The translations under genes and the position numbers were made by a program. The notes beneath the pieces are model-generated. The model did not search any database. It saw only the letters and a program-made list of their open reading frames with translations, and was not told the DNA's origin. This document shows, one piece after another, positions 30,235-48,933 of a stretch of DNA of 64,000 nucleotides. The stretch lies in the NCBI GenBank assembly GCA_012646185.1, contig GCA_012646185.1_4706.1; one strand, given 5' to 3'. This DNA is from a phage. Every line of letters starts with the position of its first letter. Position 1 is the first letter of the stretch.

Positions 30235-30260
30235 GCGTAACCTCTCTTTCCTCTAAAAAG

Positions 30261-32317: not shown

Positions 32318-32347
32318 CGGCATAAGAGCCTCCCATTACGGGAGGCT
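32318..32347 (-). promoter_or_regulatory. GC hairpin (agcctccc/gggaggct) followed on minus strand by CTTATGCCG box
   Basis: Arms 32327-32334 and 32340-32347; box identical to that at 17711-17719. Confidence 0.4.
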
Positions 32348-32359
32348 TCATTAATCGGC

Positions 32360-32908: not shown

Positions 32909-32992
32909 AATAGAACCTCATGATAATAGATAATAGAAATGATAGATAGTACAACAAATTGAGGGGTATTATCCCACCCCTCGTAGGGATTA

Positions 32993-33526
32993 CTACTTAA
33001 CGATCGCGATGATTTTGCCACCCGCACCGGCGTAATATGCCGTTAACTTACCAGTAAACAACTCTTGTAAAAGACGATTTACGTTACTAACAAAATTAGG
33101 ATTGTCCGATTTTACAAAATCGATGTTTCGCGTTTGTTTTATATCACGATCGATTAAACGGATTTCCAACAACGCACAAATAAGGCGATCGTCGAGTTTA
33201 CCACTCGCATCCAGCACTTCCCCATACTTCGTAGCACGGACGTCCGCATACATACGGTCAACATCATCCTTCCCAAAACCACAGGAATAGGCATACGTTG
33301 CGATGGTGTTACCATTGTCCATCACATAAACGTTACCACCTGGGTAATCGATAAATCGTTGATCCTTATCACCATGAGTGACGAACTCCAGTGTCGGTCT
33401 ACCTAGTGAATCACGATTGAATTCGATAGTTGTCAAACGGTCAGGCACCACATGTAACGTAAACGGTTTTGCATTGTTACGATCGCTAGTATCGCAGTTA
33501 CCCATTACTTTTACGATAACACTCAT
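32993..33526 (-). CDS. hypothetical protein (177 aa), tandem paralog B
   Basis: Paralog of 32360-32908; AAGGAA before ATG. Confidence 0.55.
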   Translation of the reverse strand: MSVIVKVMGNCDTSDRNNAKPFTLHVVPDRLTTIEFNRDSLGRPTLEFVTHGDKDQRFIDYPGGNVYVMDNGNTIATYAYSCGFGKDDVDRMYADVRATKYGEVLDASGKLDDRLICALLEIRLIDRDIKQTRNIDFVKSDNPNFVSNVNRLLQELFTGKLTAYYAGAGGKIIAIVK

Positions 33527-33600
33527 GTTTTATTCCTTAGTAGTCCTAGTAGTAGTATTGAGGAATTTCACCTCATTAGATAGTCTATTTTGGTAATGTT

Positions 33601-33900
33601 TTACTGAAACAAGACATTAAATTCGACAAGATACCCATCGGATCTATCGCCCCGATAACGGTTGCAGAAAACACCGAATTTCATCAAGAACTCACATAGC
33701 TCTTCGGCTTTGTATAACGGAATACGATTTTCGTCGAGCAGAGGGCAACTATGGCTAACCCGCTCCGACGAATCAACGCAACACAAATAAAGAAGGAACC
33801 GAACAATAGCTCGGTTCTTAGTAAAGCTCTCGAATTCACCCACAGTTCTGAACTCATCGAGGAGCTTTGTCGTTTTCTTCAATCGTTCACGATCGAGCAT
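33601..33900 (-). CDS. hypothetical protein (99 aa)
   Basis: ORF with TGAGGT before ATG at 33900. Confidence 0.45.
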   Translation of the reverse strand: MLDRERLKKTTKLLDEFRTVGEFESFTKNRAIVRFLLYLCCVDSSERVSHSCPLLDENRIPLYKAEELCEFLMKFGVFCNRYRGDRSDGYLVEFNVLFQ

Positions 33901-33913
33901 GTTAACCTCAATA

Positions 33914-33954
33914 CGAACATAACCCTCCTCCTTCCCTTACGGGTTGGAGGAGGG
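33914..33954 (-). promoter_or_regulatory. extended GC hairpin (ccctcctcc/ggaggaggg with inner ccc/ggg stem) followed on minus strand by TTATGTTCG
   Basis: Inverted repeat 33923-33931/33946-33954; the following ATG is out of frame with the downstream gene. Confidence 0.4.
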
Positions 33955-33963
33955 GATATACTG

Positions 33964-34278
33964 TTATTCTGTTTTCGGTGTTGAACCGTTCTTCTTGAAG
34001 TCGGATTCGTATTTCACGTTAGAATCGAGAACCTCACGAACGGTTTTATCTGTACAACCACGGGCGACGTATGCATTAAGATCGTCGCGTAATTTACGCA
34101 TCGTTGTTTTATCCGCATCAGAAACATCTGACTTGGTAAGACGGAATGCAATTGCATCACGAACTTTATTCAGCGTTGCTGGATTATTACGCTGCTCTGC
34201 AAATACCGCTTTGATGAATGTACCGCTATCTTTCGAAGCGATGGCTGCATCAAGAATTTCAATATGCTTTTCAGACAT
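33964..34278 (-). CDS. hypothetical protein (104 aa)
   Basis: ORF, co-oriented. Confidence 0.45.
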   Translation of the reverse strand: MSEKHIEILDAAIASKDSGTFIKAVFAEQRNNPATLNKVRDAIAFRLTKSDVSDADKTTMRKLRDDLNAYVARGCTDKTVREVLDSNVKYESDFKKNGSTPKTE

Positions 34279-34329
34279 CTTCTTTCCTTTAATAAACGAT
34301 CATCGTCATATTCATTGCGCAGGATGCTA

Positions 34330-35655
34330 TCACTTCAAAAGCTTAGACACCGCCATGCTTCGCGCCATCGCAACGTCATACGCATCCATGATCGCGTCAC
34401 CGATAGCGGTATGACGGATCAACGGAATACCCATATCTGGATACTCTTTGGTGCCTAAGATGGATACCGGTTTGTCTTGATACGCGGCAACCATCGAACG
34501 AATATCCTGAACCTGGTTATAACGGCAGATTGGTTTGAAGCCCGCTTTACGGAACCAATGCTCTAATTGCGGCCAATCTGTTTCACCACGAGCAAGATAA
34601 TAGAAGGTATCTTTACCGTAGTATTCGGTCATTTTGTCACGAATACTGTTGACGAACGCATTTACTTCGGCGATGGCTTCTTTATAACCCATTGCCTTAC
34701 AATGTTGAAAACAATAGTCGCGCGCTTCCTTTGGTGCTTTGGTTTGCCACCATTCTACTGTTGATTCACTGATACGACCACCGTCAGCGATTTGACCATG
34801 AACGTCAGGGAAGATATCTATACGCGGACCGTTAACAATGGATTCTGGATTAGCCAGATCGAAGAACACGATACCGATTTCCAGCAATACTCCATTCTTT
34901 TCCAGACTAAGGTTTTCAACATCTAAACAAAATGCGGGCTTCTCTACCGCTAACGGCTCGAACGAATGGTTGCTGGTATCCGATTCGGTTTTAAGTTCGA
35001 CGACAGCCGGATCGGTATCCGTAGGTTTCAGTTCTACTACAGCATCATCGAGTCCCGATAACGAAAAATAGTCTTCGAAGAAATCGGATATCGTCATACC
35101 ATGCAAATTGATATCGCAATCTTCCAACCATTGCTTCAACTGGTGCTCACCGGCATGAATCGCTAAACGGCACGGTCCGGAACGATCATCTAGCGCTGCA
35201 TCGATCCAGAAGAAAGCGCGTATAAGTAAGTAAGGATTATACTCCGCGATGATTTCTTGGCTAGCCGAGAAATCGTACACCATTAGTTGTATTATTCCCT
35301 TACGCGTGTTATACGGATCAACTTTCAATCGACGCACTATTTCTTCTACGAATTCCAACGCGCGCGTGTACGAGGTGGACCCACCTTGTTCATACGAACA
35401 TATACCCGTCAAAAGTTCCTTATAGGACGCATATGGAACCATAGGCGATAATTTGTACGACAGTTCAGTATTGTAATTATCGCATAATTTCTTCGGGGCG
35501 ATAGCATCCTGTATCGCTGTAATAAACGCCGGTCCATCAATATCAAACAACCATCCTTGACGCCGGTATGCAGTGTACCGTAATAACGCACCGATAACTG
35601 CCTGGGGCGGTGTATATTCTTTCCCGTTAATTTCAAACAGTAGTTTGCTCATCAT
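34330..35655 (-). CDS. protein with C-terminal DEDDh 3'-5' exonuclease domain (DnaQ/RNase T-like) and unknown N-terminal domain
   Basis: Exo I-like FCLDVENLSL, central YYLARGETDW, Exo III-like HTAIGDAIMDAYDV in the C-terminal ~190 aa. Confidence 0.6.
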   Translation of the reverse strand: MMSKLLFEINGKEYTPPQAVIGALLRYTAYRRQGWLFDIDGPAFITAIQDAIAPKKLCDNYNTELSYKLSPMVPYASYKELLTGICSYEQGGSTSYTRALEFVEEIVRRLKVDPYNTRKGIIQLMVYDFSASQEIIAEYNPYLLIRAFFWIDAALDDRSGPCRLAIHAGEHQLKQWLEDCDINLHGMTISDFFEDYFSLSGLDDAVVELKPTDTDPAVVELKTESDTSNHSFEPLAVEKPAFCLDVENLSLEKNGVLLEIGIVFFDLANPESIVNGPRIDIFPDVHGQIADGGRISESTVEWWQTKAPKEARDYCFQHCKAMGYKEAIAEVNAFVNSIRDKMTEYYGKDTFYYLARGETDWPQLEHWFRKAGFKPICRYNQVQDIRSMVAAYQDKPVSILGTKEYPDMGIPLIRHTAIGDAIMDAYDVAMARSMAVSKLLK

Positions 35656-35667
35656 AACACCTTTTCA

Positions 35668-36003
35668 TTATTCTGGTTTATCTGTTGTCAGGCCGAGTCC
35701 GGTCAATATCACGTAATCATACCACGCTTTTACTTCTGCTTTCGCTTCATCTAAACTGAATGCGTTGATGTGCGGAAACTCATCGTTGACTGGGAAAGGT
35801 AAATCGCAGTCGTAGCTTGTATCGTCTTTCCAACCTTTCCATTCGATCGTTAGGGAACCAAAAACGGTCTCAGCGACAACATGATTATAGCGACAGTTTT
35901 CACACGGTGCGTGCTCTTCCGACCACACAAGCTCATGCTGCGCTAAAAGTTGTTGTACAACCGATAATGGTTGCTCTTCATTAAGTTCGATACTGTCTAT
36001 CAT
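35668..36003 (-). CDS. hypothetical protein (111 aa)
   Basis: ORF, co-oriented. Confidence 0.45.
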   Translation of the reverse strand: MIDSIELNEEQPLSVVQQLLAQHELVWSEEHAPCENCRYNHVVAETVFGSLTIEWKGWKDDTSYDCDLPFPVNDEFPHINAFSLDEAKAEVKAWYDYVILTGLGLTTDKPE

Positions 36004-36596
36004 CGCATACCCTCCTTTTCCTTATCGTAATCGCTGCAAATATTGACAAACGCAGTATTATCAGACAGCGTGGCGACCATCTGACGGATTGCGACCAATG
36101 GTTCAAGTTTAGGATTGATTGATTCACCGGTCAACGCGCTTATTGCTCGTGTGATCTCAACCAAATCAACGTTCGGGTCTTTGTCATCAATAATGAGTAA
36201 ACTCTTCGCCGGTTTCTGACGACGTTTGATGATCAACAAATACGTGATGAGGTTCTCACGCCAAGCATCAGAATCCAGATTGCGTATCAGGGTTAACGCG
36301 CGACGCTCTTCCGCCCATGATGGTTTCTCACGGATAACAGGCATGTAAGATAATTGCTCAGCAAGCCCTTTCAAACTGACACGGTTGGTGCCACCGGGAT
36401 GCTCACTAATCCGCAACATCTCGGTTAACAGACGGACATAGGCGGCTGTTGTCGAAACACCCCTCAGCGGCAGGAACACATTATGTCCTGGAACCCCATC
36501 GTGACTCAGCGGTGCGATATACGCCATGAATCGCCGAATATCATCATCGGTCTGTTCTCCAGCAACGAACTTAAACGCTTCACGTAAAACGCTCAC
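36000..36596 (-). CDS. hypothetical protein (198 aa)
   Basis: ORF, 4-nt overlap. Confidence 0.5.
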   Translation of the reverse strand: MSVLREAFKFVAGEQTDDDIRRFMAYIAPLSHDGVPGHNVFLPLRGVSTTAAYVRLLTEMLRISEHPGGTNRVSLKGLAEQLSYMPVIREKPSWAEERRALTLIRNLDSDAWRENLITYLLIIKRRQKPAKSLLIIDDKDPNVDLVEITRAISALTGESINPKLEPLVAIRQMVATLSDNTAFVNICSDYDKEKEGMR

Positions 36597-36882
36597 TATG
36601 AAGTCTCCTTAATGTTTCTTGCATGCGTAGTCTCTTCGGCAGAAATAGACGTTTGTATAGATCGATTAACAGATAACGCATAACGGAAGCAACCACCAGG
36701 TATTCGCCTTCGGCTTCCGAGTAGCGTATCATGTTAATCGGATAGTTCAAATAAGAATAAGAAAAGAGATCATCGTTGGTGAGGTGATGATCTTCAAGAT
36801 ACTGACGAAACAATTCTGCTAAGGCATCGTACTCCATTCCGTAGTAACACAACGATACCTGTCTTACCGACAGTCGTTTCAT
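36580..36882 (-). CDS. hypothetical protein (100 aa)
   Basis: ORF, overlaps neighbours. Confidence 0.4.
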   Translation of the reverse strand: MKRLSVRQVSLCYYGMEYDALAELFRQYLEDHHLTNDDLFSYSYLNYPINMIRYSEAEGEYLVVASVMRYLLIDLYKRLFLPKRLRMQETLRRLHSERFT

Positions 36883-37721
36883 GCTGGGTTACCTTTTAGT
36901 TTTCCGCGTATCATGTCAACAACGCGTGAGGGATCAGAAATAACATTGGCGATAAGATGATCGATAGGTAGGTCGAGAATGATATTCTTCAGCTGGAAAG
37001 CCGTATCTTTACGACGCACGCCATAGAACACACCATCTTTAAACACAACCTCGTACGAAATGGGGAGCTGGCTAATAACCGTGTTAGCGTAATCACCCAA
37101 CCACATCGACCCCGCCATCAGATGCGCACAAACCGCATGACTAATACGCACATCTTTGTTCTTCCGGCTAACGTCTTTGGTTTTCGACATGGTGACCAGA
37201 AGCTCGCTGATCTTACTCAACATATCGTCGTATACCCCAAAGAACTTAATCAGTTGTCGGGCACCTAACGATATATATGTTTCCCGTGGTAAGACACAAC
37301 ACACCTGCGGTAACGTTCCAACCCCATAAACACAACTGTGTGGCGATAATGGGAGCAAATCAGCAACCGCGTTTTTGATGTTGTTATACTCAACGATATC
37401 ATTGAACGGTGAAAGGCCTTTCGTAATCGGTTTATCAATCGCCACATCGAACTCCGCGAACGTCCATGCTGCTTTACGTGGTTCCGCTTTCTGGTACGGT
37501 GGAGCCAGTACCGCGACAACGCGAAGCCGATGTTCATGGGTATCACGCAGCTTAAGTTGGATACCCTCATCGTCACCCTCACGCACAAGTGAGTAGCGGC
37601 TTGCGCAGTCATCACATACCACCGTTGGTTCGTGTTGACCGTATGCTGCAAGCATCGGTTTACTAAGATCTTTATCACAGTGTTTACAGCGATGATCCTG
37701 TTCCTGATAACTAATTTTCAC
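36879..37721 (-). CDS. hypothetical protein with N-terminal Cys4 zinc-ribbon (280 aa)
   Basis: CKHCDKD...VVCDDCASRY near N-terminus. Confidence 0.55.
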   Translation of the reverse strand: MKISYQEQDHRCKHCDKDLSKPMLAAYGQHEPTVVCDDCASRYSLVREGDDEGIQLKLRDTHEHRLRVVAVLAPPYQKAEPRKAAWTFAEFDVAIDKPITKGLSPFNDIVEYNNIKNAVADLLPLSPHSCVYGVGTLPQVCCVLPRETYISLGARQLIKFFGVYDDMLSKISELLVTMSKTKDVSRKNKDVRISHAVCAHLMAGSMWLGDYANTVISQLPISYEVVFKDGVFYGVRRKDTAFQLKNIILDLPIDHLIANVISDPSRVVDMIRGKLKGNPA

Positions 37722-37736
37722 ACCGAGACCCCTTTG

Positions 37737-38693
37737 TTAATGCAAGACACGATCTGCTGGAATTATCGAAGCATTGCTGTCGGACAGATTCGTCGCTTTA
37801 CGATCAGGACTGAATCGACGAGCGTTCTCTTCATGGTAGTTGACAGGGTTATCCTGTTTTAACAGTTCCATTGCCTCATCAAACGTTAGTTCCCGAAATC
37901 CTCTTGGATAGAGGAACAGGGGTTCATCAACATCCAGCCCTTTAACAAACCCGTGCGACAACCAGACACTACCATCAGCACTGTAAAGAACCGGCTCAAC
38001 GTCATAATCCAAGACGTATTGATACCAATAATTAAACAGTTGAGCAATCCACCGATTACGTAATAAGTAATCGATCGTAACCGCACTACGCACGCTGTGG
38101 CACCAGCCGATCTTACCATCAACTTTCTGCAGCAACGTACCCTCATTTGCTTGATGAATAACCGCATTAAATAACCACGCGAGATCGGTTGCGAAAAGTG
38201 CGGCTTCTTGAATATCGCTAATGTAACGCATGGGTATCGTCAGATGCGTGCGGTAATGTGACATTGCCTCTTCGTAGTTGTCTCCTTCGATGCAGAGAGT
38301 CCCGTTTGGCGACAGATGTCCCTGATTCAACGACTGACCAATATAAAGATCAGCGATCGCGTTAATATATTCGACGGTGCCCAAGGTTAACTCAGACATA
38401 AAACAATCGACATCAACAGCCATCGATGTGCTGGAAACAAACGGATTGGTTGGGCGAGTTGTATTAGAGAAAATAATCGACCAAATCGCTTCGTGTTTTT
38501 CATCCGATGGCAAAAACGAAATATGGCGTTCTGCGCTATTATCGACAACAAATACCTTAACGGTTTTCAAACAGCTAGTACAAACATAGCACGTGTTCGG
38601 CAACGGCATATCCGAAAACATATCGTAACGAATCGATGCCAACGAAATGTCATGTCCGCAATGAGGGCATGTCGTATCAATAAGCGTTTTCAT
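37737..38693 (-). CDS. hypothetical protein with N-terminal Cys4 zinc-ribbon (318 aa)
   Basis: TCPHCGHD...CYVCTSCLKT near N-terminus. Confidence 0.55.
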   Translation of the reverse strand: MKTLIDTTCPHCGHDISLASIRYDMFSDMPLPNTCYVCTSCLKTVKVFVVDNSAERHISFLPSDEKHEAIWSIIFSNTTRPTNPFVSSTSMAVDVDCFMSELTLGTVEYINAIADLYIGQSLNQGHLSPNGTLCIEGDNYEEAMSHYRTHLTIPMRYISDIQEAALFATDLAWLFNAVIHQANEGTLLQKVDGKIGWCHSVRSAVTIDYLLRNRWIAQLFNYWYQYVLDYDVEPVLYSADGSVWLSHGFVKGLDVDEPLFLYPRGFRELTFDEAMELLKQDNPVNYHEENARRFSPDRKATNLSDSNASIIPADRVLH

Positions 38694-38923
38694 TATTGAA
38701 TTCCTTTTGATAAGAATAACTGAATATCGGTAAACTGTTCTTCAGGAACATCGTCAGCAGCCGTTAGAACCTTAGAGCCATGTTCATTGAGGTAAGCTTC
38801 CCGTAGACAACGATGACGTCGATTGGCTTCCTGGAACTCAGTGTCCGTCATGTAAACCAGCGTAAACTTCGAACGTTTATTCGGATTGTATCTCTTATTA
38901 CGTTTCTTTGGTTTCTTCGCCAT
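38693..38923 (-). CDS. small basic protein (~76 aa)
   Basis: Start moved to ATG 38923 (MAKKPKKRNKRYNPNKRSK) with GAGG SD; the track start lies in hairpin 38938-38961. Confidence 0.4.
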   Translation of the reverse strand: MAKKPKKRNKRYNPNKRSKFTLVYMTDTEFQEANRRHRCLREAYLNEHGSKVLTAADDVPEEQFTDIQLFLSKGIQ

Positions 38924-38937
38924 AATAGCCTCGTGAA

Positions 38938-38961
38938 GGTGGATGGGCACACCCATCCACC
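38938..38961 (-). terminator. 10-bp GC hairpin ggtggatggg/cccatccacc with 4-nt loop
   Basis: Perfect inverted repeat between stop of 38987-39493 and start of 38693-38923. Confidence 0.45.
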
Positions 38962-38986
38962 TTCCTCCATGTTAAAGTGCGTTCAT

Positions 38987-39493
38987 TTATTCAGGTGTAC
39001 GTACGGTACGCGTGTTGGGATCAACCATTGCTGGCACACCCGCTGGACATTTACGGACATCGATCCGCATCTCCGGCTCGATCGGACGAACGCGATACGT
39101 TTTGCCGTCATCGGTTAACACCGAAATGGTCAACGCTTGGTTCAATTCACTAACGAAGCTCACCAAACGCTGTTGTCCGCCCTTCGACCAGAAGTTAAGA
39201 TCGGTTTCTCCATTGAAATAACTGATTCCATCAGCGGTTCCAATCGTGATTTTAACGATACCTGGATAGTCACGAAGAAGAGGTGCCTGATAACCTTCAT
39301 CTTCCGTATCCAGTTTTACCCACGCGCCTCCCGTAGACAAGCAGTTAACTTCCAAGGCGGTTGGTGCACTGACTTCTGCTGATGACCAGGTATACATCGT
39401 GCCTAGTTTAGCGTGTCCAGTTTCCAGTTCGCTATAATCCCAAGCATGTGCTGAAGCCGCAATAAACAAAGTCGCAAGAAACAACTTTTTCAT
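38987..39493 (-). CDS. secreted protein (168 aa)
   Basis: Signal-peptide-like N-terminus MKKLFLATLFIAASAHA. Confidence 0.5.
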   Translation of the reverse strand: MKKLFLATLFIAASAHAWDYSELETGHAKLGTMYTWSSAEVSAPTALEVNCLSTGGAWVKLDTEDEGYQAPLLRDYPGIVKITIGTADGISYFNGETDLNFWSKGGQQRLVSFVSELNQALTISVLTDDGKTYRVRPIEPEMRIDVRKCPAGVPAMVDPNTRTVRTPE

Positions 39494-39547
39494 TCTTTCG
39501 ATTCCTATTAAAAGTGACCGATTTCTGTGGTCGAGATTGCTAATAAA

Positions 39548-40009
39548 TTAATTCCGGTTTTGTTTCCGTATTGCACGGTTACGTTTACGTTCTTGGTCTT
39601 TGACTGTACCAAGAAACTTCTTTAATTCTGACGGTTCGAGCGTACCCTCACGTACCACACCGTTTTGTTCGATATGGTACGACCAATAACCAACTTCAGC
39701 CGTTAAGGATAACGTTGTCGGTTGTTCGTCAGGTAACGATCGGGGTGAGAAAATAAAGAGTAATTCAAAAGGCGTTTCTCGGCTGATGGTGGGGCGGATA
39801 CTCACATCAAGTCCCTCCCATCGCTGAGGTTTAAATATTCCTCCGGCGGCGATGATTGTCTCCGAGCGCTGGTCTACAAGCTCAGCTAATTCACGATCAT
39901 CGTTGAAATAAATATCGTGAAGGATATCCGTATCGATAAAAAACCCGCGATCCGAATCGTGACGAACAATGGAATTCTTCATTCTAACGCCTTTATTGTT
40001 TGTTTTCAT
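39548..40009 (-). CDS. hypothetical protein (153 aa)
   Basis: ORF, co-oriented. Confidence 0.5.
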   Translation of the reverse strand: MKTNNKGVRMKNSIVRHDSDRGFFIDTDILHDIYFNDDRELAELVDQRSETIIAAGGIFKPQRWEGLDVSIRPTISRETPFELLFIFSPRSLPDEQPTTLSLTAEVGYWSYHIEQNGVVREGTLEPSELKKFLGTVKDQERKRNRAIRKQNRN

Positions 40010-40056
40010 GTCCTATACGAACATGAAAAACCGTTAATTTTTACCGTAGTCGTGTG

Positions 40057-40332
40057 TTAAAAATCCACGCCGCGACCCGTCATCGACGAAGGAACCGCGC
40101 GATAATAGAAGTAGATGTAATGGTCACGATGGCTAAAACAGTTTTTGCAAGCATAGAACTCTCCAGATCCAATGAATGATTTAATACGTGTAACTTGAGG
40201 GTGTCGTGTGAGTAACGCCTGTAGAACGATTTCCATTTGGTGTGCGCTCAAACCAGGTCGAGCTGCAACATGATAATGAAGCTCCTTAAGAAATCGCTTC
40301 CAGGGGTCAGGTTGTGTCGATGATCGAGACAT
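40057..40332 (-). CDS. hypothetical protein (91 aa)
   Basis: ORF with AAGGAGATAAAG before ATG at 40332. Confidence 0.4.
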   Translation of the reverse strand: MSRSSTQPDPWKRFLKELHYHVAARPGLSAHQMEIVLQALLTRHPQVTRIKSFIGSGEFYACKNCFSHRDHYIYFYYRAVPSSMTGRGVDF

Positions 40333-40357
40333 CTTTATCTCCTTAACGGGTGCTGGT

Positions 40358-40388
40358 AACGCAGCATAAACCCTCCCCGAAGGGAGGG
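40358..40388 (-). promoter_or_regulatory. GC hairpin CCCTCCC-TTCG-GGGAGGG followed on minus strand by TTTATGCTGCG box
   Basis: Arms 40371-40377 and 40382-40388 with a TTCG loop in minus sense; directly after stop of phosphatase gene; the ATG begins only a 10-codon ORF. Confidence 0.45.
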
Positions 40389-40398
40389 CGGTTAACGT

Positions 40399-40956
40399 TT
40401 ACTCCATCCATACTTCTTCGTCGTAATGATTTTCTATCGCATTACGCCAAAAACGTACGGTGTCCAAACTAATCGGTGCGTAAAAGTGTTGGTCAACGCC
40501 GACGTTAAGTCCGTTGGCCTTCGCTAACATACAGCGATGAATATGACCGAATAAATTAAAGTAGCCTGGGTTTCTTTCGCTGGGCTTATGGCATAGCCAG
40601 TAGGATTCGTCATTGCTAATCGGCAATACCAGCGGGTGCTCATAAACAGCAGCAAACCCCATACCGAGCAGTTTATCACGCCACGCTTCGAAGCTTAATC
40701 CTGTCGCTTTGTATGCGTCTTCGTCCCAATTCCCCATTACCAATTGAACCTGGATATCAGAACGAATGGCTTCCACGAACTCGAACTTACCCCAATCACC
40801 TAAATGCCATAACACACTGTTCTTTGGAAGGTTGTTGATGGCTTTCAGCATATGCTGGTTCATATCGGCGACGCTTGCGAACGGACGGCGTGAATACGTC
40901 CATGTACGCTCGCTATCAAAATGGGTATCCGACATAAAGAAGATGGGTGGGGTCAT
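40399..40956 (-). CDS. calcineurin-like metallophosphatase (Ser/Thr phosphatase or ApaH-like)
   Basis: Motifs in order: FMSDTHFD (DxH), HLGDWGKF (GD), VMGNWDED (GNHD/E-like), FGHIHR (GH). Confidence 0.7.
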   Translation of the reverse strand: MTPPIFFMSDTHFDSERTWTYSRRPFASVADMNQHMLKAINNLPKNSVLWHLGDWGKFEFVEAIRSDIQVQLVMGNWDEDAYKATGLSFEAWRDKLLGMGFAAVYEHPLVLPISNDESYWLCHKPSERNPGYFNLFGHIHRCMLAKANGLNVGVDQHFYAPISLDTVRFWRNAIENHYDEEVWME

Positions 40957-41435
40957 TGATTTAATTGCTCCAGAAATGCGCGACCCGATTTACTTGCTTT
41001 TAAATGCTGTTCTGCGGAAGTAAGCAGAAGATCGGTTGGCGTATATGCAGCGCTACCTTTCCACGCTGTTTTCAGTTTACCCTTTTCGATACTGAACTGA
41101 ATCAGTTGTTGGGTACCGAAGTTAAGCGTGTTCGTCGCGGCGCTAAATACACCGCCCATCATGCTGTAACCAAAGACTTTCACGTTTTCCGTGTAGAAGT
41201 CGTTATCGATCAATTTGTTCTGGAGCTCGAGTTGGTCGGACGGCAGCAATCCCCCATCAAAGACGCTTAAAATACCAGCCAGGCGATACATGCTCACCTT
41301 TCCTGAAACGCCCACCACGTAGTTGCCGTACAGGGTTTCTTCCAGTTTAGCAACAACGGTGCGATCGTCGGAGGTTTTCATCGAAACCTCAATACCATCA
41401 CCAACTTCTGTTAACGTTAAATCAACGATACTCAT
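40953..41435 (-). CDS. hypothetical protein (160 aa)
   Basis: ORF, 4-nt overlap with phosphatase gene. Confidence 0.5.
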   Translation of the reverse strand: MSIVDLTLTEVGDGIEVSMKTSDDRTVVAKLEETLYGNYVVGVSGKVSMYRLAGILSVFDGGLLPSDQLELQNKLIDNDFYTENVKVFGYSMMGGVFSAATNTLNFGTQQLIQFSIEKGKLKTAWKGSAAYTPTDLLLTSAEQHLKASKSGRAFLEQLNQ

Positions 41436-41456
41436 TCATTATTCTCCGCTTTCATG

Positions 41457-42143
41457 TTAACACATGATTTCACCATGTTTCTTTTCAACATACGTATAAA
41501 CGTCATCCAAATAAGCAATGAGTTTATCACGATCCGCACAGAGCGATTTAATCACCGCAATCTCTTTCATATAAAGCTGCTGACCTAACGCCGGATACGT
41601 AATCCATGCGTAGCCGTCAGGCGCAAATTTAGAAATAAGATAATCAGCGGTTTCCTGTAATGCGAACTCTTTACTCATCTGGCCGTAACGATGTTCGATT
41701 GCACGGATACCAAAACGTTCGTTATCAAGACGACCCATATCCGCCAAACGAAGCACCTGAGAAGCAACCGAGCTACGTGGACCAGAGTACGAGGCACGAT
41801 GTTCAGCAATAAGTACGCGTATCTCCTCGATGTCCTCCGGTGTGAAAATATGCTGCTCGTTACGAAGCAGGATAACCGATGCACGAATACCCCCGATAAG
41901 GTGGTGGTATGTTCTGTTTTCGTGGCAAGCGATATCATGCATAAAAGCAGCGGTTAATAGACGACGACGTTCCGTGGGTCTGATGATCCCAACCACATCA
42001 GCAAGTTCATTTGCCAGTTCAACAACAGCAAGCACATGTTCTTCTTGATGTGCAAGATCGTTCTTCCGAATATTTTCAATTACTTCAGCGCGTGTTTCCT
42101 GAGATAAGAAATTTAAACAATCCAACGAATATAAAGATTTCAT
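41457..42143 (-). CDS. HD-domain phosphohydrolase-like protein
   Basis: HEEHVLAVVELA ... AAFMHDIACHE ... histidine and aspartate pattern typical of HD domain. Confidence 0.55.
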   Translation of the reverse strand: MKSLYSLDCLNFLSQETRAEVIENIRKNDLAHQEEHVLAVVELANELADVVGIIRPTERRRLLTAAFMHDIACHENRTYHHLIGGIRASVILLRNEQHIFTPEDIEEIRVLIAEHRASYSGPRSSVASQVLRLADMGRLDNERFGIRAIEHRYGQMSKEFALQETADYLISKFAPDGYAWITYPALGQQLYMKEIAVIKSLCADRDKLIAYLDDVYTYVEKKHGEIMC

Positions 42144-42188
42144 CGCACGTACCTCTTTGAATCTATTAATAAATTTTCTTTACTCACG

Positions 42189-42208
42189 TAAGTAATATAG
42201 CCGTGAAA
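42189..42208 (-). promoter_or_regulatory. second copy of conserved 20-mer taagtaatatagccgtgaaa, about 46 nt upstream of ATG at 42143
   Basis: Exact 20/20 identity with 14177-14196; lies in the divergent intergenic region. Confidence 0.4.
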
Positions 42209-42303
42209 GGATTTGTGTTGGTCCGTCTCGATGCCCATCGTATTTTATGGATTGTCGAATGACGTCATTTTAAGGGACATCCCCGGCCTCCTCCCCAGGA
42301 AAG

Positions 42304-44433
42304 GTGTGGGGAGGAGTTTTTATCATACATTCTATTAAATCGAGCGCGATTATGTTGGATAGAATCAATCGTTTAATGAACCGAATAACGGTTAAAAATC
42401 AGAGTAACAACACCGTGCATATCGGGGGTATCGATGCCTGGCGTCTTTCAGATGACATTCAGCGAATATGGGGTACCTCCCGATTTATGAAACATATGTT
42501 TCGTAATTTCTCTTCTAGTGGACTCAGTCTCCACAACTTTTACCTTCCCGATTTCGTTTATATTCTCGAAACGATCATCGAAGCAAAGAATACCCGTAGC
42601 AACAAACGCATGCTGAAACACCTTATTGAGGTACTGCTACAGGAAACCTGGCTGCAAAATACCACAATCGAGCAACCTGCAATCCTCGATAAAGCACGCA
42701 TGAACAAAATGCTAACGCTCTCTTTGTTCGATTATCAAGATGAGTTTATCGACATCTATAACCGTAACGTACCTAAATACCGACTGAAAGGATACGTGTG
42801 CGCGATGGGTGCTGGTGCGGGTAAAACAATCACCGCATTGGCTTTAAGCGCCGCAATGAACGTCGACGTATTTGTGGTCTGCTGTCCTAAGAACACCATG
42901 CGTTCAGCATGGCAATCCGATGTAAACAAAGCCATCGTTGACCCCGCAACAGAAACCGCGTTCTGGTCAGACACAATGCCACCATCACAGCTGCAGAAAA
43001 GCGATAAGTATTATTTTCTGCATTACGAATCGATGGGTTTATTAAACGATGTAATGATCAAGCATAAACGCACAGCGAAGCGCGTTCTTATTGTTGTTGA
43101 CGAAAGCCATAACTTCAACGACAAGAACAGCCAACGTTCCCAACGACTGGTTGATCTTGTACAGACAATGCGTCAAACCATGAATGCGGATGTGCACGTC
43201 TTGTTTATGTCGGGTACGCCTGTTAAACAAATGGGTTCTGAGATGATCCCCTGTTTAGGTTGTATCGACCCGATGTTCCAAGGACAGGTGGTCGATAGCT
43301 TCAAATCAATTTACGGTTTAACCAGCAGTCGCGCTAACGATATCCTCAGACATCGTCTTGGGTTCATGATGCATGTCGTACCTAAAGAGGCTTATCGTAA
43401 AACCCGTCCGGAAGTTCAGGACGTTTACGTGAAGCTCCCTAACGGTAGCGATTATACCATCTCAAGTATCCGCGACGACATGGCGGTATTTGTACGCGAT
43501 CGGGCGAAGTATTACAAGGATAACTGGGGGCATTACAGAAAGATTTTTGATGACGCCTTGGACTACTATCGTAAGACTATTCGTACCGATGGTGAACGTA
43601 AAGAGCTATCTCGATACGAATCGATTGTTACTCGTTTCCAGAAAGGTTACGATCCCGTCAGAGACAAAGAAGATGCGATGTTCTGCAATACGTTTGAAAA
43701 ACGAGCGATCATGCCGGTTCTTCCTTCCGATTTAAGGATCGCTTTCAAAGACGCCAAGAGCGTCATCAAGTACGTTGGGTTGAAAATTCAGGGTGAAGCG
43801 TTAGCGCGCGTTCTCGGTGCAGCCCGCATTCGGTGTCATGTCGACATGGTGGAGTACATCGACTTCGAAGGGTACATCAACAACGCTGAAGCCAAAGTGT
43901 TGATCTTCACGTCGTACGTTCAGGTGGTTGAGCGCGTCGACAACCTGCTTCGTGATGCGGGTTTCTTACCGGAACCCATTTACGGGAAGACCAACAAAAA
44001 CATCAACCAAATACTTGCTCGTCTACGCGATGATCCTGACAGCGGTCCCGCTATTGCAACATTTGATAGCTTAGCTGAAGGGGTTCCGATGCTGATGTGT
44101 AATGTCGGCCTTTTCCTGAACAACCCGTGGCGTTCATCCGATGAAATCCAAGCCATCAGCCGTCTCGATCGCGTAGGACAAACGCAGCCTGTTCGGATTT
44201 ATCGTTTCATGTTGGATACAGGAAGCGAGGGTAACGTTTCTACACGTAGCCACGAAATCATGGAGTTAAGTCGACAGCTTGTTGAAGAAATCACGGGTGT
44301 CAAATATGTTGTGAACAAGCAAGATGATGTTAACTTGCAAGAAACGTTGGCAATGGAAGGATACGACCAATACGTTACCGTAAACACCACGGAATACGAT
44401 ATTAAACCACGACCTGCGTTCTTGGAATGGTGA
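42304..44433 (+). CDS. superfamily 2 DNA/RNA helicase (DExH box)
   Basis: Walker A CAMGAGAGKTITAL, motif II VVDESHNF, motif III FMSGTPV, helicase C-terminal region; true start may be ATG at 42352. Confidence 0.7.
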   Translation: MWGGVFIIHSIKSSAIMLDRINRLMNRITVKNQSNNTVHIGGIDAWRLSDDIQRIWGTSRFMKHMFRNFSSSGLSLHNFYLPDFVYILETIIEAKNTRSNKRMLKHLIEVLLQETWLQNTTIEQPAILDKARMNKMLTLSLFDYQDEFIDIYNRNVPKYRLKGYVCAMGAGAGKTITALALSAAMNVDVFVVCCPKNTMRSAWQSDVNKAIVDPATETAFWSDTMPPSQLQKSDKYYFLHYESMGLLNDVMIKHKRTAKRVLIVVDESHNFNDKNSQRSQRLVDLVQTMRQTMNADVHVLFMSGTPVKQMGSEMIPCLGCIDPMFQGQVVDSFKSIYGLTSSRANDILRHRLGFMMHVVPKEAYRKTRPEVQDVYVKLPNGSDYTISSIRDDMAVFVRDRAKYYKDNWGHYRKIFDDALDYYRKTIRTDGERKELSRYESIVTRFQKGYDPVRDKEDAMFCNTFEKRAIMPVLPSDLRIAFKDAKSVIKYVGLKIQGEALARVLGAARIRCHVDMVEYIDFEGYINNAEAKVLIFTSYVQVVERVDNLLRDAGFLPEPIYGKTNKNINQILARLRDDPDSGPAIATFDSLAEGVPMLMCNVGLFLNNPWRSSDEIQAISRLDRVGQTQPVRIYRFMLDTGSEGNVSTRSHEIMELSRQLVEEITGVKYVVNKQDDVNLQETLAMEGYDQYVTVNTTEYDIKPRPAFLEW

Positions 44434-44438
44434 TTAAG

Positions 44439-44475
44439 AAGCTCTGCATGATGTCAGGCAGAGCTTTATACTTGC
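44439..44475 (+). terminator. intrinsic terminator after helicase gene: 9-bp hairpin aagctctgc/gcagagctt followed by TTATACTT
   Basis: Perfect inverted repeat 44439-44447/44458-44466 starting 6 nt after the stop codon. Confidence 0.5.
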
Positions 44476-44534
44476 ATTTGTTGCAACAATCGTATGACGT
44501 ATACGCGTTGTACTTATTTAATAAGGCAGAATAA

Positions 44535-45986
44535 ATGAAACTTAAACAAAGCTGGAAAGACGAACTTCTCGCGTTAGTAAATAGCAAAAACAGCTTACAG
44601 CTGACATTAGCCGACGTAAAATTTGAACTAACTGAACCGGTAAGCGAAGTGCCCGGAACGGTTGTCGTTACGATCAAACCGAACGATGATAGCCGTTACT
44701 TTAACGAGCAGTCTCTGACCTACATCCGTCGAGACATCGCTAAAAACTTCACCGGGATCCCGTTACGGGTTATCGTTAAAAATGATACCGCCGTAAGGGA
44801 TATCATCAATACGATTGCTGAACGTTACGGATTGGTATTTGACACAACCATCGACTTCCTCGAATCCGAGCTGAATAAGCAGATTACGTTCGAAGACACC
44901 GGTATTAAAGACATTACGGTTCCGGTTGCAAACACGTCTTATGTTTGGGCTGGTAATCTTCAGTTCAATATCGCTAACGATACGTTGAGCTTGATTACGA
45001 TCATCAAGCAAACCAATCTTACGAATCTGGTTTATCTGGATGGTGTTGAATCTAACACATCGGGTTCGTTACTATTAGCAACGACCTCGGTTATCGGCGA
45101 AAACGGAAATGCCGAAACAACTGAAGGTGTCCTTGACGCCGCGTACTTCCAGAATATCCTGAACGTCATGGTTCGTTATGGTGATATTACCAGCGAACAA
45201 ATGCAACAAGCAATGCAGACAATTAACGGAAGCGAAGACGCTCGTAGAGTAGAGGTGCGGTCATACGGTGACGCCGAATTACTGGTAACCACCAAGAAAG
45301 ATTGGGTTATCGGTAGCCTTAAGGGTGCTATGGTTGTTGGTCACGCTTCACCTAAACCAATCCAATACGTTCTTAAAACAAAAGGCGGCACCATTATATT
45401 GTCATTAGATGGTTGGACAAATGTCAATATCGATTGGGGTGATGGGAATAAGACGACGCAGGACTCAGGCGATAATGAATATCAGCACAATTATGCGGAC
45501 ACTACAGAACGTACGATCGTCGCTACGGGTACCCCTACCAACGTTGGAGATACAGACGTACAGCAAAGCTTCACCGGTGGTAACATCACTGAAATCGTTG
45601 ACTGGAACAACGGATTACCTAAGGCCCCATCATTACTTGCAGCGAACAGTTTAACTAAGGTTCCCGATTATATCCCGGCATACTGGACATCGTTAGAAGG
45701 TATGTTTACGCGATGCAGCGCTATTAACGACGTGAACATCACCAAATGGAACACCCGCAACGTTACTTCAATGAAGGACCTCTTCTACGGTTGCGCTACG
45801 TTCAACCAACCGATCGGTTCGTGGGATGTTTCGTCTGTTAAGAATGCAGACAATATGTTGTCTGGGTGCTTCGCGTTCAATCAGGATCTGAGTGGTTGGA
45901 CATTCCCGGCAGGCACTTCACACATCAACTACGACGCCATGACCGCCGCATGGCAGGCTGGTTATAAACCACACTTCACCGAGTAA
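44535..45986 (+). CDS. two-domain protein: shared N-terminal module plus C-terminal DUF285/BspA-like repeats; candidate fiber or adhesin
   Basis: N-terminus parallels 3261-3788 and 7605-8435; C-terminus has repeats MFTRCSAINDVNITKWNTRNVTSMKDLFYGCATFNQPIGSWDVSSVKNADNMLSGCFAFNQDLSGW. Confidence 0.65.
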   Translation: MKLKQSWKDELLALVNSKNSLQLTLADVKFELTEPVSEVPGTVVVTIKPNDDSRYFNEQSLTYIRRDIAKNFTGIPLRVIVKNDTAVRDIINTIAERYGLVFDTTIDFLESELNKQITFEDTGIKDITVPVANTSYVWAGNLQFNIANDTLSLITIIKQTNLTNLVYLDGVESNTSGSLLLATTSVIGENGNAETTEGVLDAAYFQNILNVMVRYGDITSEQMQQAMQTINGSEDARRVEVRSYGDAELLVTTKKDWVIGSLKGAMVVGHASPKPIQYVLKTKGGTIILSLDGWTNVNIDWGDGNKTTQDSGDNEYQHNYADTTERTIVATGTPTNVGDTDVQQSFTGGNITEIVDWNNGLPKAPSLLAANSLTKVPDYIPAYWTSLEGMFTRCSAINDVNITKWNTRNVTSMKDLFYGCATFNQPIGSWDVSSVKNADNMLSGCFAFNQDLSGWTFPAGTSHINYDAMTAAWQAGYKPHFTE

Positions 45987-46044
45987 AAAAAAAAAAAAAT
46001 AGATAGCATATCTTCCTCCCTACCCATAACGGGCGGGGAGGAAG
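45985..46044. terminator. bidirectional terminator at convergent junction: A15 run (45985-45999) plus extended GC hairpin (46012-46044)
   Basis: cttcctccc/gggaggaag arms with inner ccc/ggg stem; T15 in minus sense follows the hairpin after stop of 46062-46400. Confidence 0.55.
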
Positions 46045-46061
46045 GTTTATGTCAATTTAAC

Positions 46062-46400
46062 TTAGAACCAGAGTTCTTTCATGAAGTAGGCTTCCATATC
46101 GTAGATAAGCCACTCGTCAGGGATTTCTAAAGGATCGTCTTCGGTTAAGGTCAGCATGTGCAGGGCGAACGCACGCTTAATATCGTTCAGCAGTTTCTCG
46201 TCGTCGTAACCTTCGGGTAGTTTACGGTCTACCAGCTGGGTTTGTTTATAGACGTCGCGGAATGCTTCAGGGCTGTGTTTGTCCATCGGAAATTGTTCAG
46301 CAGCCTGAACCATAGAAAGCGTCCAGCTTACAACATTGTAACGCTCACCATTAATTTCACTGAACTGATCATCGATTAAACAGATTTGTTGTACGTTCAT
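46062..46400 (-). CDS. hypothetical protein (112 aa)
   Basis: ORF, last gene of the long minus-strand block. Confidence 0.5.
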   Translation of the reverse strand: MNVQQICLIDDQFSEINGERYNVVSWTLSMVQAAEQFPMDKHSPEAFRDVYKQTQLVDRKLPEGYDDEKLLNDIKRAFALHMLTLTEDDPLEIPDEWLIYDMEAYFMKELWF

Positions 46401-47290
46401 TCATTTTCTCCATTCTTATCTTGGTCGCAATCACACTCTTCGACGTCTTTCTTACTTAAACGTAAGACACCGAGTGCGGCATGCTTGAGTTCTTGCAACG
46501 CGCTTTTCAGCTGACCTTCTTCATCGAAATCAAAATACTTCTCGTTGTAGCTTAATGCTGGAATCATATTTACGAGAGGTTCGATGGCGGGCATCAGCAT
46601 TTCAATGACGACCTTAGGATCAACAAAGCGTTCAAACCCTTCAGGAAGTTTGCTCGCTACAACCTTATCGTTTTTGATGTAGAATTTGTTCTTGAACAGA
46701 TCGTCAAGAATAGCGTTCTCTTCATCCGTACGTTTTGCGTGAGGACGATCGATCATCTGTACAAACACACCATTCAACGCTTCAGGCAACGTCGGATTTT
46801 CACGAAGATAAGTTCCAGCCGGAATTTCAATATCGATCTTCGTCCACTCAACAACCTGGTGGTCTCGTGTGTAGATGACGTCAACTTCCCACGCCAGGCC
46901 ATCAGCGCTTTCTACGGTGTAACGTGTTTTCGCCTGGCCTTCAGGAGCCATGCGTTCGATCGCGTCAAACATCTCGACTGGAATTTCGACTTCGCTTTCC
47001 GTTGCATCACCTGGACCACGATACACCTTCGTGGTCATGATGTATTTCGGCTCTTCGTTATCGATCTGGATCGCACGTGCGCGCACCTGACCTTTCACAC
47101 CACCAACGGCTGTGTTATCAAACAACCATTGATGTTGCACCATATGTTCGATTTTTGATGCGACTTGACGAAGACGTTCAACACCGTCTTCAGCCAGTTT
47201 ACCAAAGAAGACCAGCTCACGTTCCTGCTGTGTCTCACCACTTAACATCATTAAATTGGCGATTTGTTTCACGCCTCTTACTTGTGACAT
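46397..47290 (-). CDS. hypothetical protein (297 aa)
   Basis: ORF, 4-nt overlap. Confidence 0.55.
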   Translation of the reverse strand: MSQVRGVKQIANLMMLSGETQQERELVFFGKLAEDGVERLRQVASKIEHMVQHQWLFDNTAVGGVKGQVRARAIQIDNEEPKYIMTTKVYRGPGDATESEVEIPVEMFDAIERMAPEGQAKTRYTVESADGLAWEVDVIYTRDHQVVEWTKIDIEIPAGTYLRENPTLPEALNGVFVQMIDRPHAKRTDEENAILDDLFKNKFYIKNDKVVASKLPEGFERFVDPKVVIEMLMPAIEPLVNMIPALSYNEKYFDFDEEGQLKSALQELKHAALGVLRLSKKDVEECDCDQDKNGENE

Positions 47291-47358
47291 ACATGCTCCG
47301 GTTATAAGGGCCTACATCGAGGCCCCTCATTGATTTTTGATTCCACCAAACGCTATCG

Positions 47359-48933
47359 TTACAATTCAAAATCTTCATCGATAACACGCTGGGTAAGCAC
47401 TTTGTCGCTGAAGAACTCCACCTTGCGCTGATGGTATTTACGGTGCGCTTCGATAGAAGTACATACCAGATACCAGAACGTTGGCGTCATTCCTTCAAAC
47501 TTCCCTTTCAGCTGACGCAGTCGCCCCAACACCTGAATGTTGCCGGTTCGTGACCCCATCGCTAACGTCATGAACGTCATCACCAAGTCAGGGAGGTCGA
47601 TACCTGTACCTGCCGATTTCACCGTCGTAACGCTAATATCGTTATCCAGCAAGACCATGAAATCTTCTTCAGCAGTATAAGGACCGATCTCTAGCTCAGG
47701 AATACGCTCACTGAGATAGTGCGACAACGACTTACACATATCAACGGTTGCACAATACACCAGCATCTTCATGCCTTCCTGATACTGGTTCATGAAACCT
47801 TTGATGATAACGGTATAGATGAAGTTAAAATACGCGAGTTTGAGTTGCTTGTTCTTCATGATAGACTGTTCGAATATCGTGTGTGAATAAGCTCCGCCAA
47901 ACCCTTTGTATCTGACTTTATCTGTACTGCGTAGTCGATATGTTACCGCATTTACCGCAATATATTTCTTGTATTCGCCTTTTGCATAACGGGCTTCTTT
48001 CGGATACATCAAATACAACATCTGTTCGATAAACGGATCATCGGACACCGCCGTTGCCGACAGATAAATGATTTCCGGAATACTGGCGTAACACTTGACC
48101 TTAAACAAGAAATGCAATGCTTCGTGACACTCGTCATGAATCAGCAAACCTATGCCGGTCTTTTCCCAAAACTCAGCGGGATGAAAGGCATATGGCGCAA
48201 CGCAGTTATTCTTCTCGTAGTCCGCAATATAACGTTGGAACATGTTCAAGGAGAACAATGCGATTTTGAAGTCGAGCTCACCTTGTTCAACCAAGGTTTG
48301 AAACTCCAGCATGCTGTAACGAGGAATGTCGGGATGTGGTGGATCCTCCTTAGCGTTCCCGCGTATCTCAATAACGTCCCCTGGTTCCATCCCGAAGAAG
48401 TTCAGCAGTGAGCTTCGCCAACCTGGCATGTATCTCGGCGACAGAATGATACCCGTCCGTACACCACGTCGGAAGGTAATCTCCTGCGACATGGCCGTTT
48501 TTCCTGACCCCGTTTGAGCGGTGTTTAGGCTCATTCTGAAGGGGGTATCCTTACCCCCGTCCATGTACTCCAACCATTCTTGCTGATCTTGACGCCATGG
48601 AAACTTCCATTTCTTTACGAACTCCACTTCTTTACCTGGTACCGGATCGTGATAGACGATTTCCAACCACTCTTTTCGTATCCCTCGGGAAAAGATAAAA
48701 TCCAAAAACGATTTCAACTGTTCACGGAGTAAGTATACCTCGCTATAATCGCTTCTCGCCGCGGCATACGTGTTTATGGTATCGGTAACCATTCTCCGTG
48801 TACGAGGGTCACGCCGTTTCCTCAGATGCAAACAACGGTCTCGAAGGTAATGGCCTATCAAATGGGCAAATCGAAGTCCGTATCCGCTCAGCCTCATGCC
48901 ATGCGAGAAGACGTCGATACGAGCTAACTTCAT
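47359..48933 (-). CDS. superfamily 2 helicase (DExH box)
   Basis: Walker A TAQTGSGKTAMS, motif II LLIHDECHE, SAT motif YLSATAV, motif VI QVLGRLRQ. Confidence 0.65.
   Translation of the reverse strand: MKLARIDVFSHGMRLSGYGLRFAHLIGHYLRDRCLHLRKRRDPRTRRMVTDTINTYAAARSDYSEVYLLREQLKSFLDFIFSRGIRKEWLEIVYHDPVPGKEVEFVKKWKFPWRQDQQEWLEYMDGGKDTPFRMSLNTAQTGSGKTAMSQEITFRRGVRTGIILSPRYMPGWRSSLLNFFGMEPGDVIEIRGNAKEDPPHPDIPRYSMLEFQTLVEQGELDFKIALFSLNMFQRYIADYEKNNCVAPYAFHPAEFWEKTGIGLLIHDECHEALHFLFKVKCYASIPEIIYLSATAVSDDPFIEQMLYLMYPKEARYAKGEYKKYIAVNAVTYRLRSTDKVRYKGFGGAYSHTIFEQSIMKNKQLKLAYFNFIYTVIIKGFMNQYQEGMKMLVYCATVDMCKSLSHYLSERIPELEIGPYTAEEDFMVLLDNDISVTTVKSAGTGIDLPDLVMTFMTLAMGSRTGNIQVLGRLRQLKGKFEGMTPTFWYLVCTSIEAHRKYHQRKVEFFSDKVLTQRVIDEDFEL

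Follow-up and report, generated by a model that had tools for sequence, protein, structure and literature searches.

The element studied here lies at 40358–40388 on the minus strand of a 64,000-nucleotide (nt) stretch of phage DNA (contig GCA_012646185.1_4706.1), which was analysed at its full length and is called the window below. It begins 11 nt past the stop codon of a phosphoesterase gene (40399–40956), and the next start codon follows 35 nt on. The element consists of the GC-rich hairpin CCCTCCC-TTCG-GGGAGGG, with a predicted folding energy of −16.6 kcal/mol, followed by T and the box TTATGCTG. We found that it is one of 14 hairpin-plus-box elements in the window, which are very probably transcription terminators of the factor-independent (intrinsic) type that is conserved among phiKZ-like jumbo phages. 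The motif class is already known from phiKZ and 201phi2-1; what is new is its occurrence in a Goslar-like Escherichia coli phage.

The window phage is a close relative of Escherichia phage vB_EcoM_Goslar. Comparison of window positions 34000–46500 with Goslar gave 96% identity across 94% of the length. Goslar is a 237-kb nucleus-forming jumbo phage of the genus Goslarvirus (Chimalliviridae), and it carries its own multisubunit RNA polymerases (RNAPs). Nearly all genes of the window are on the minus strand. Two of its genes (48930–50936 and 53008–55341) gave PHROG matches to phage multisubunit RNAP beta-type subunits (E = 1e-169 and 2e-180). These matches and the taxonomy of Goslar identify the window phage as a carrier of phiKZ-type multisubunit polymerases. 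Matches to sigma70-like promoters were rarer than in shuffled sequences (24 against 36.2 ± 5.4 for window 30001–50000), which fits either selection against promoters of the host polymerase or an effect of composition. Hairpins followed by a T-run showed no enrichment in the window (18 observed, 17.8 in shuffles). The paucity of sigma70 matches and the lack of a T-run terminator excess together fit transcription of the phage by enzymes of its own. Rfam and tRNA scans of the window returned no matches, and the literature searched yielded no published start-site or end-site transcript map for Goslar or the window phage. A third Goslar-like genome, the metagenomic IMG/VR contig IMGVR_UViG_3300011560_000001 (237,533 bp), is ~90–95% identical to the window where they overlap. 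It differs from both Goslar and the window, and served as a third sequence for the comparison of intergenic signals.

The assignment as terminators is carried by sites mapped in relatives. In phiKZ, 133 termination sites were mapped by ONT-cappable-seq, and 61 of the mapped terminators share the consensus 5′-BCCYCCCCHWWDGGGRRGGBYTTATKYYGT-3′ (Putzeys et al. 2024, Microlife, PMC10914365). Motif A of 201phi2-1, present in 59 terminators, strongly resembles the phiKZ motif, and eight 201phi2-1 terminators, most of them with conserved motifs, terminate transcription in a two-reporter trap in uninfected Pseudomonas (PMC11512511). The 30-nt phiKZ consensus matched the window at 32317–32346 with 2 mismatches, where 0.00 such matches are expected. 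Its 3′ half matched four window sites with at most 1 mismatch (0.18 expected), and the remaining window sites depart from the phiKZ pattern in stem, loop or spacer length only. The focal hairpin matches the one in phiKZ T057/T067 at every base; T057 reads GCCCTCCCTTCGGGGAGGGCTTTATGTTGT and the focal site GCCCTCCCTTCGGGGAGGGTTTATGCTGC.

The phiKZ tables in the bioRxiv supplement list, for every termination site, the sequence from −60 to +40 and, for every start site, the 50 bp upstream. From these, we parsed 21 motif-bearing rows of termination sites. The mapped 3′ end fell 0–7 nt (median 5) past the first T of TTAT, which is 5–9 nt beyond the stem. An earlier note on this DNA had taken the hairpin for a terminator; the shared phiKZ architecture and the activity of resembling 201phi2-1 terminators in vivo bear out this part of its proposal. 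For the window phage itself, we infer the terminator function from the homology of the signal.

The likeness to the phiKZ and 201phi2-1 terminators extends beyond the consensus. It includes a stem-loop with one C-rich and one G-rich arm, in many cases with a loop of the UUCG or GUAA type, and the sequence (B)(Y)TTAT(K)YYG(T) after it. It also includes a position after genes, oriented with transcription, bidirectional forms at convergent gene ends, and phages that possess virion as well as non-virion RNAPs (vRNAP and nvRNAP). Unlike phiKZ, the window phage is Goslarvirus-like and has E. coli as its host, and its proteins show only weak similarity to phiKZ proteins. The window stems and spacers vary more in length, the base after TTAT is G or A in the window as against G or T in phiKZ, and the window for the most part lacks the A-rich upstream complement (ACATAA) that is common in phiKZ.

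The elements are in clear excess over chance, and their placement is strongly biased. TTATG with a strong hairpin 0–5 nt before it occurred 9 times, against 1.02 ± 1.00 in 200 shuffles (maximum 5). TTATGYYG occurred 22 times in the window, where 10.3 ± 3.2 copies were expected; the excess consists of the hairpin-linked copies, and hairpin-less boxes are no commoner than chance predicts. Counting the minus-strand reading of the hairpin at 46012–46044 separately, the 14 elements give 15 readings. All but one (14/15) stand after a gene, in the orientation of that upstream gene, and begin 3–35 nt past its stop codon. The zone up to 70 nt downstream of a co-directional stop codon makes up ~5% of strand positions, and a binomial test on 13 of 14 readings after stops gave P ~3e-16. 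About 35 hairpin-plus-box sites were found genome-wide in Goslar, where no 7-mers of the intergenic regions are more enriched than CCCTCCC, TTATGCC and TATGCCG.

The elements were collected with a custom hairpin-plus-box scan with shuffles as the control; a perfect-stem scan misses sites with G–U pairs or internal loops. Gene context was taken from stop codons and the Goslar annotation, because greedy longest-open-reading-frame calls over-extend the starts and had mislabelled three sites as coding. A covariance model built from a MAFFT alignment of 12 sites was discarded, as the variable stem, loop and spacer lengths put the arms out of register. Nine sites had been listed in the earlier note as a CCCTCC/GGGAGG-type stem, 0–4 nt and TTATG. 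When their coordinates and strands were re-read, all nine were in place, with a C/T-rich 5′ arm, a G/A-rich 3′ arm, a spacer of 0–4 nt and TTATG, and the scan added five more. Only the interval 46012–46050 needed correction: the element is present, but the interval stops one base short of the G. The hairpins have predicted RNA folding energies between −14.7 and −26 kcal/mol, each forming one stable single hairpin. Arms of the CCYCC/GGRGG type occur in 10/14 elements; the remaining four are built on different GC stems, a feature also of some phiKZ terminators. The consensus of the 14 boxes is yTTATG-C-Y-G. TTAT itself was the selection criterion; at the positions after it, G was found in 10, C in 9, Y in all 14 and G in 9 of the elements.

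Most of the elements read on the minus strand. The site at 17711–17738(−) reads CCCTCCC-GACAT-GGGAGGG followed by C and TTATGCCG. At 10849–10883(−) and 32318–32347(−), the sequences are CCCTTCCTGC-GTAAA-GCAGGAAGGG, T and TTATGCTG in the former (−24.9 kcal/mol), and AGCCTCCC-GTAAT-GGGAGGCT, C and TTATGCCG in the latter, which is a putative terminator in the Goslar record. Long hairpins are present at 33914–33954(−), where CCTCCTCC/GGAGGAGG is followed by TTATGTTCG (−25.2 kcal/mol), and at the newly found 23832–23874(−), where a CCCTCCC/GGGTGGG core precedes G and TTATGCTG (−24.7 kcal/mol). At 51669–51711(−), CCCTCCCTCTCC...GGAGGTGGGAGGG is followed by AA and TTATGTCG (−21.5 kcal/mol), and Goslar has CTATG here. 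Downstream of this box, at a distance of 8 nt, there is a second small hairpin, TTTCCGTTATTTCTGACGGAAA, at 51640–51661(−), within the mini-open reading frame opened by the box ATG. The site at 52531–52574(−) reads CCTCCTCCTGCC...GGTGGGAGGAGG, ATGT and TTATGCTG (−23.3 kcal/mol). Two variants on this strand were newly found: 13757–13786(−), GGTCCCCC-TAAAT-GGGGGCC followed by T and TTATACCG, in which A replaces the G, and the weaker 47300–47325(−), GGGCCT-CGATGT-AGGCCC followed by TTATAACC.

The plus-strand sites include the terminator at a convergent gene end at 55567–55606(+), CCCTCCC...GGGAGGG followed by CAT and TTATGCCG. Its box is complete despite there being no co-directional gene beyond. 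A newly found terminator follows the helicase gene at 44441–44474(+), GCTCTGC...GCAGAGC with T and TTATACTTG (tail TTTATACTTG). Another newly found element, 42288–42328(+), is atypical: the hairpin CTCCTCCCCA/TGGGGAGGAG with TTTTTATCATAC sits 5′ of the helicase gene, in a divergent region, and is 100% conserved in both relatives. It may be a terminator in the 5′ untranslated region or one that blocks antisense transcription. Both 44441–44474 and 42288–42328 are terminators in the Goslar record, so that three window hairpins in all carry the annotation "putative transcriptional terminator" in GenBank; the focal one has no such annotation. The 46002–46054 element is bidirectional and lies between convergent genes. 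Its hairpin (46012–46044, −26 kcal/mol) ends in GTTTATGTCA in the plus reading and in ATATGCTATC, followed by a T15 run, in the minus reading. On the plus strand, this run is an A15 tract at 45989–46003 directly past the stop codon of the gene 44535–45986 (11 A in Goslar); the minus strand has it as a T15 tract 12 nt beyond the hairpin. An ATATG tail and a long U-run are therefore combined in the minus-direction terminator.

The three Goslar-like genomes were compared at these sites, and stem substitutions were found to keep the pairing. The 10849–10883 hairpin has loop-only changes in Goslar, and in IMGVR_UViG_3300011560_000001 a compensatory U–A to C–G change and a U–A to U–G change. At 23832–23874, a G–U pair corresponds to G–C in Goslar. 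Changes at the other sites are restricted to the loops. Three substitutions fall within boxes, and all of them are C/T swaps at the degenerate Y position (CTG/CCG). A 29-nt terminator hairpin, TCCTCCTTCCCTTACGGGTTGGAGGAGGG, is identical at Goslar positions 27745, 71989, 134584 and 237278, and the window copy of one of these sites (33914–33954) has symmetric replacements in the inner stem, AA/AA versus TT/TT, a pattern suggestive of copying or gene conversion between terminators.

Beyond the genus, 50-kb samples contained 18 hairpins followed by TTAT in phiKZ, 9 in Ea35-70, 4 in EL, 2 in SPN3US and none in AR9. The box is thus common to some lineages of the family and is not universal. In Erwinia phage Ea35-70, the box TTATGCCG follows GC hairpins of reversed arm polarity, with the 3′ arm CCCTCTCC. 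In phiKZ-like Pseudomonas genomes of IMG/VR, too, the box comes after GC hairpins. An exact 16-mer of the motif recurs 2–4 times on jumbo-sized IMG/VR contigs (172–315 kb). In this pattern scan, the total number of matches was about that expected by chance for a 14-base pattern, and the clustering on jumbo-sized contigs is its informative part.

With terminators as the preferred reading, a sequence of events can be proposed. The phage multisubunit polymerases would transcribe beyond the stop codon, and the nascent RNA would fold into a GC-rich hairpin of 7–15 bp. The polymerase would next transcribe the short conserved tail (Y)UUAUG(C)YG, and the transcript would be released with its 3′ end within or just past the tail, which would substitute for the long U-tract of ordinary bacterial terminators. 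In long co-directional gene arrays, the elements would set the limits of transcription units or attenuate them, and where genes converge they would work in both directions. We infer that specific bases of the tail act as a pause or release signal. The consensus of the bacterial elemental pause is G−10 Y−1 G+1, and the Y-then-G step 5–9 nt past the G-rich stem possibly resembles it. Since the phage hosts differ and the tail does not, the tail is probably fitted to the phage polymerases.

The canonical bacterial intrinsic terminator offers a partial parallel. It shares the GC-rich hairpin near the 3′ end of the upstream gene and, as regards the relatives, the 3′ end 5–9 nt past the stem and termination by host polymerase in a reporter. 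However, it has a U-tract of 7–9 nt, whereas the window elements have the conserved, U-poor UUAUGCYG, and the run of at least 5–8 U expected directly past a canonical stem is missing from them. Why a specific U-poor tail replaces the U-tract is the point of wider interest, and the sole part liable to surprise specialists.

Several observations weigh against the terminator assignment. With only 2–3 U in the tail, the classical hairpin-plus-U-tract model leaves release unexplained, and a single site (the 40371–40384 stem) passes the T-run scan, and that barely. The element at 42288–42328 has no co-directional gene upstream. The box is rare in the SPN3US and EL samples, where U-richer tails occur instead. 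Finally, 3′ ends from ONT-cappable-seq do not, by themselves, separate termination from processing.

One competing explanation concerns the TATG of the box. The earlier note proposed a terminator fused to a TATG-type transcription start. In this reading, the hairpin would stop the upstream RNA and the adjacent TATG would be an nvRNAP late start at its G; every downstream gene would then have a leader of 20–130 nt. The TATG late promoter of phiKZ-like polymerases, which the note had mentioned, is real: the phiKZ nvRNAP late promoter is 5′-TATG-3′, with G as +1 and every position needed (Yakunina et al. 2015, PMC4666361), and a structure shows the tetranucleotide bound on the non-template strand by GP123 (PMC12809450). 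Goslar encodes a GP123 homologue, Goslar_00039, with 24% identity, in which 5 of 14 pocket residues (F151, K158, H331, S334, Q466) do not vary between phiKZ, Goslar and EL, which is more than expected (P = 0.003). The two RNAP genes of the window were considered for this role, but neither is a GP123 homologue, and Goslar_00039 corresponds to a position beyond the window. Other points in favor are the G retained in 10/14 window boxes, the distance of just 19–50 nt from box to next start codon at several sites, which leaves scant room for another promoter, and four phiKZ late transcription start sites (TSS) within 20 nt past a terminator box.

The mapped phiKZ transcripts nevertheless make the fusion quite unlikely. 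None of the 149 mapped phiKZ TSS lies on a hairpin-adjacent TATG, and the RNA 3′ ends map in the box. The four close late TSS (P049, P075, P054, P139) use a second TATG 5–20 nt downstream. Starts 25–40 nt past the motif belong to the early (P017, P028, P099), middle (P023) and late or unclassed (P006, P016, P041, P078, P143) sets. The model late promoter P119L (P063), like most late promoters, is preceded by AT-rich DNA and lacks a hairpin. The window boxes resemble the phiKZ late promoter in the TATG that most of them contain and in the GP123 homologue of Goslar, but differ in following a hairpin, in tolerating loss of the G and in occurring where no gene follows. The G is A or C in 4/14 window elements, and A or T in 6/21 phiKZ elements. 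The box is kept at convergent ends in the window (46047, 55599) and in Goslar (27745, 71989, 200267, 224380, 232605), as well as at the Goslar genome end (237278). A late promoter should stand upstream of the co-directional gene that it serves; at convergent ends there is no gene to serve, and full boxes there speak against a promoter. The chance-level frequency of hairpin-less boxes points the same way, as do the Goslar box-to-start distances, which range from 17 to 246 nt with no favored spacing.

One further comparison speaks for the fusion: YYG was somewhat better kept at tandem (15/20) than at convergent (3/10) Goslar sites, with a marginal P = 0.045 in a Fisher test. A separate role of YYG in serving the downstream gene was rejected on account of this marginal value and of the bidirectional phiKZ terminators, both arms of which bear TTATGYYGT. 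The better retention at tandem sites and the short leaders are compatible with simple read-through of partial terminators. Overall, the phiKZ maps and the convergent sites leave the promoter reading apparently disfavored in the window phage. The hairpin promoters of the N4 virion RNAP were considered as another parallel, as they too place a short DNA hairpin near a phage-polymerase signal. In N4, a single-subunit RNAP uses only three such promoters, with 5–7 bp stems and 3-nt loops, upstream of early genes. The window hairpins come after genes and the polymerases are multisubunit, so this comparison was dropped.

The TATG could also be recognized during elongation. A GP123-type TATG pocket, or an equivalent polymerase contact, might capture the TATG of the tail after the hairpin forms, an idea that we regard as doubtful. 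If it were true, the polymerase would pause, the U-poor tail would suffice for release, perhaps with immediate restart, and promoter and terminator would share one recognition module; the conservation of the box across hosts and the depletion of TATG described below would also be accounted for. The idea is weakened by the 201phi2-1 terminators, which work with the host polymerase, and by the GP123 pocket, which is incomplete in the transcribing complex (PMC12809450).

TATG/CATA is among the most under-represented tetranucleotides in these phages. The observed/expected ratios, calculated with a second-order Markov model, were 0.70 for Goslar (rank 3–4 of 256), 0.62 for SPN3US, 0.67 for EL, and 0.76 for phiKZ and Ea35-70, as compared with 0.79 for AR9 (rank 27) and 0.92 for E. 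coli K-12 (rank 83). The whole window and the Goslar genome were used, together with 50-kb samples of the others, E. coli K-12 being the sole non-phage control. Within Goslar genes, both the sense (0.68) and the antisense strand (0.58) are depleted of it. The depletion possibly reflects avoidance of a polymerase signal.

The elements could, instead of terminating transcription, be RNA 3′-end elements for stability, processing or export, made by cleavage or bound by a phage protein. Such a role would suit the tail, which is sequence-specific rather than merely U-rich and is conserved across Pseudomonas, Escherichia and Erwinia phages; mapped 3′ ends fit processing as well as termination, and Chimalliviridae must export mRNA out of the phage nucleus. 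Even so, we consider it very unlikely. The 201phi2-1 terminators lower downstream reporter expression in uninfected cells, where phage factors are missing. Enhanced crosslinking and immunoprecipitation (eCLIP) of ChmC gave no motif, with binding near start codons and not at 3′ ends. The 3′ ends 5–9 nt past a GC stem have the geometry of intrinsic termination.

A role in translation is highly improbable. Here, GGGAGG would be a Shine–Dalgarno (SD) sequence, the box ATG would start a leader peptide or the downstream gene, and the hairpin would mask the ribosome binding site. The GGGAGGG-N4–5-ATG spacing is indeed ideal for initiation, and the box ATG is the annotated start of three Goslar genes (Goslar_00111, Goslar_00167 and Goslar_00183; window positions 17714–17716 and 51675–51677), one of which has 31 codons. 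In two window boxes the ATG shares its frame with the next gene, and at 17711–17738 it is the start codon of that gene in the Goslar annotation. However, the frames opened by the box ATG encode unrelated sequences of 3–39 codons, the box is present at convergent ends, and its G is not invariant in the window, while T is allowed at this position in phiKZ. In addition, the Ea35-70 3′ arm has no SD resemblance and the box is unchanged. The reversed arms with the same box imply that the SD-like GGGAGGG is not the conserved part. They also uphold the earlier choice of a transcription signal over a ribosome binding site. The Goslar starts placed at a box ATG are probably mis-called, owing to the SD-like GGGAGGG arm.

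The earlier note was right that the ATG is usually not a gene start: open reading frames of 3–39 codons follow from it at seven sites, with the two in-frame cases given above, and at one convergent site it opens a spurious antisense frame. The SD-supported starts, which the note placed 20–80 nt further on, lie 19–127 nt downstream of the box.

The probability is negligible that the elements act at the DNA level as repeated extragenic palindromes (of the repetitive extragenic palindrome type, mobile, or forming a protein-binding cruciform): they are intergenic, repeated and palindromic, with one 29-nt version identical at four Goslar sites, but their orientation is strict relative to the upstream gene (the two orientations are not equally frequent), the asymmetric tail is solely on the transcript side, stem sequences vary among copies with pairing kept, and terminal repeats and target duplications are absent.

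Read as terminators, the elements directly map where transcription units end in Goslar-like phages; Goslar itself is a main E. coli model of nucleus-forming phages. The same map flags the probable mis-called start codons in the Goslar record.

Possible start signals were also observed. A conserved promoter-like motif, tTTTCACGGCTATATTACtTAnGTGA, is found at 42170–42215(−), 14158–14203(−) and 60173–60218(−), and at no fewer than eight Goslar sites. Its core and spacing, TATATTAC-N4-GTGA, are those of the phiKZ early (virion-RNAP) promoters in the published TSS table, and ATATTAC is 8.6-fold enriched in Goslar upstream regions. The TATATTAC-N4-GTGA sites are probably early promoters of the window phage. 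With terminators and a phiKZ-like early promoter in the same window, the phiKZ transcription signals carry over to a distant relative with another host, which suggests that phiKZ-type signals co-evolve with the phage polymerases and not with the host enzyme.

Strong GC hairpins without a box were also seen shortly past co-directional stop codons, at 3904–3933(−), 8525–8555(−), 30945–30962(−) and 32961–32982(−), and further ones at 38935–38964(−), 56935–56956(−) and 60246–60277(−). Examples of the tails of such TTAT-less hairpins are GCAATATGCG, TTTTTCCTATTTTCC and AATTTGTTGT. These hairpins likely form a second, heterogeneous class of terminators.

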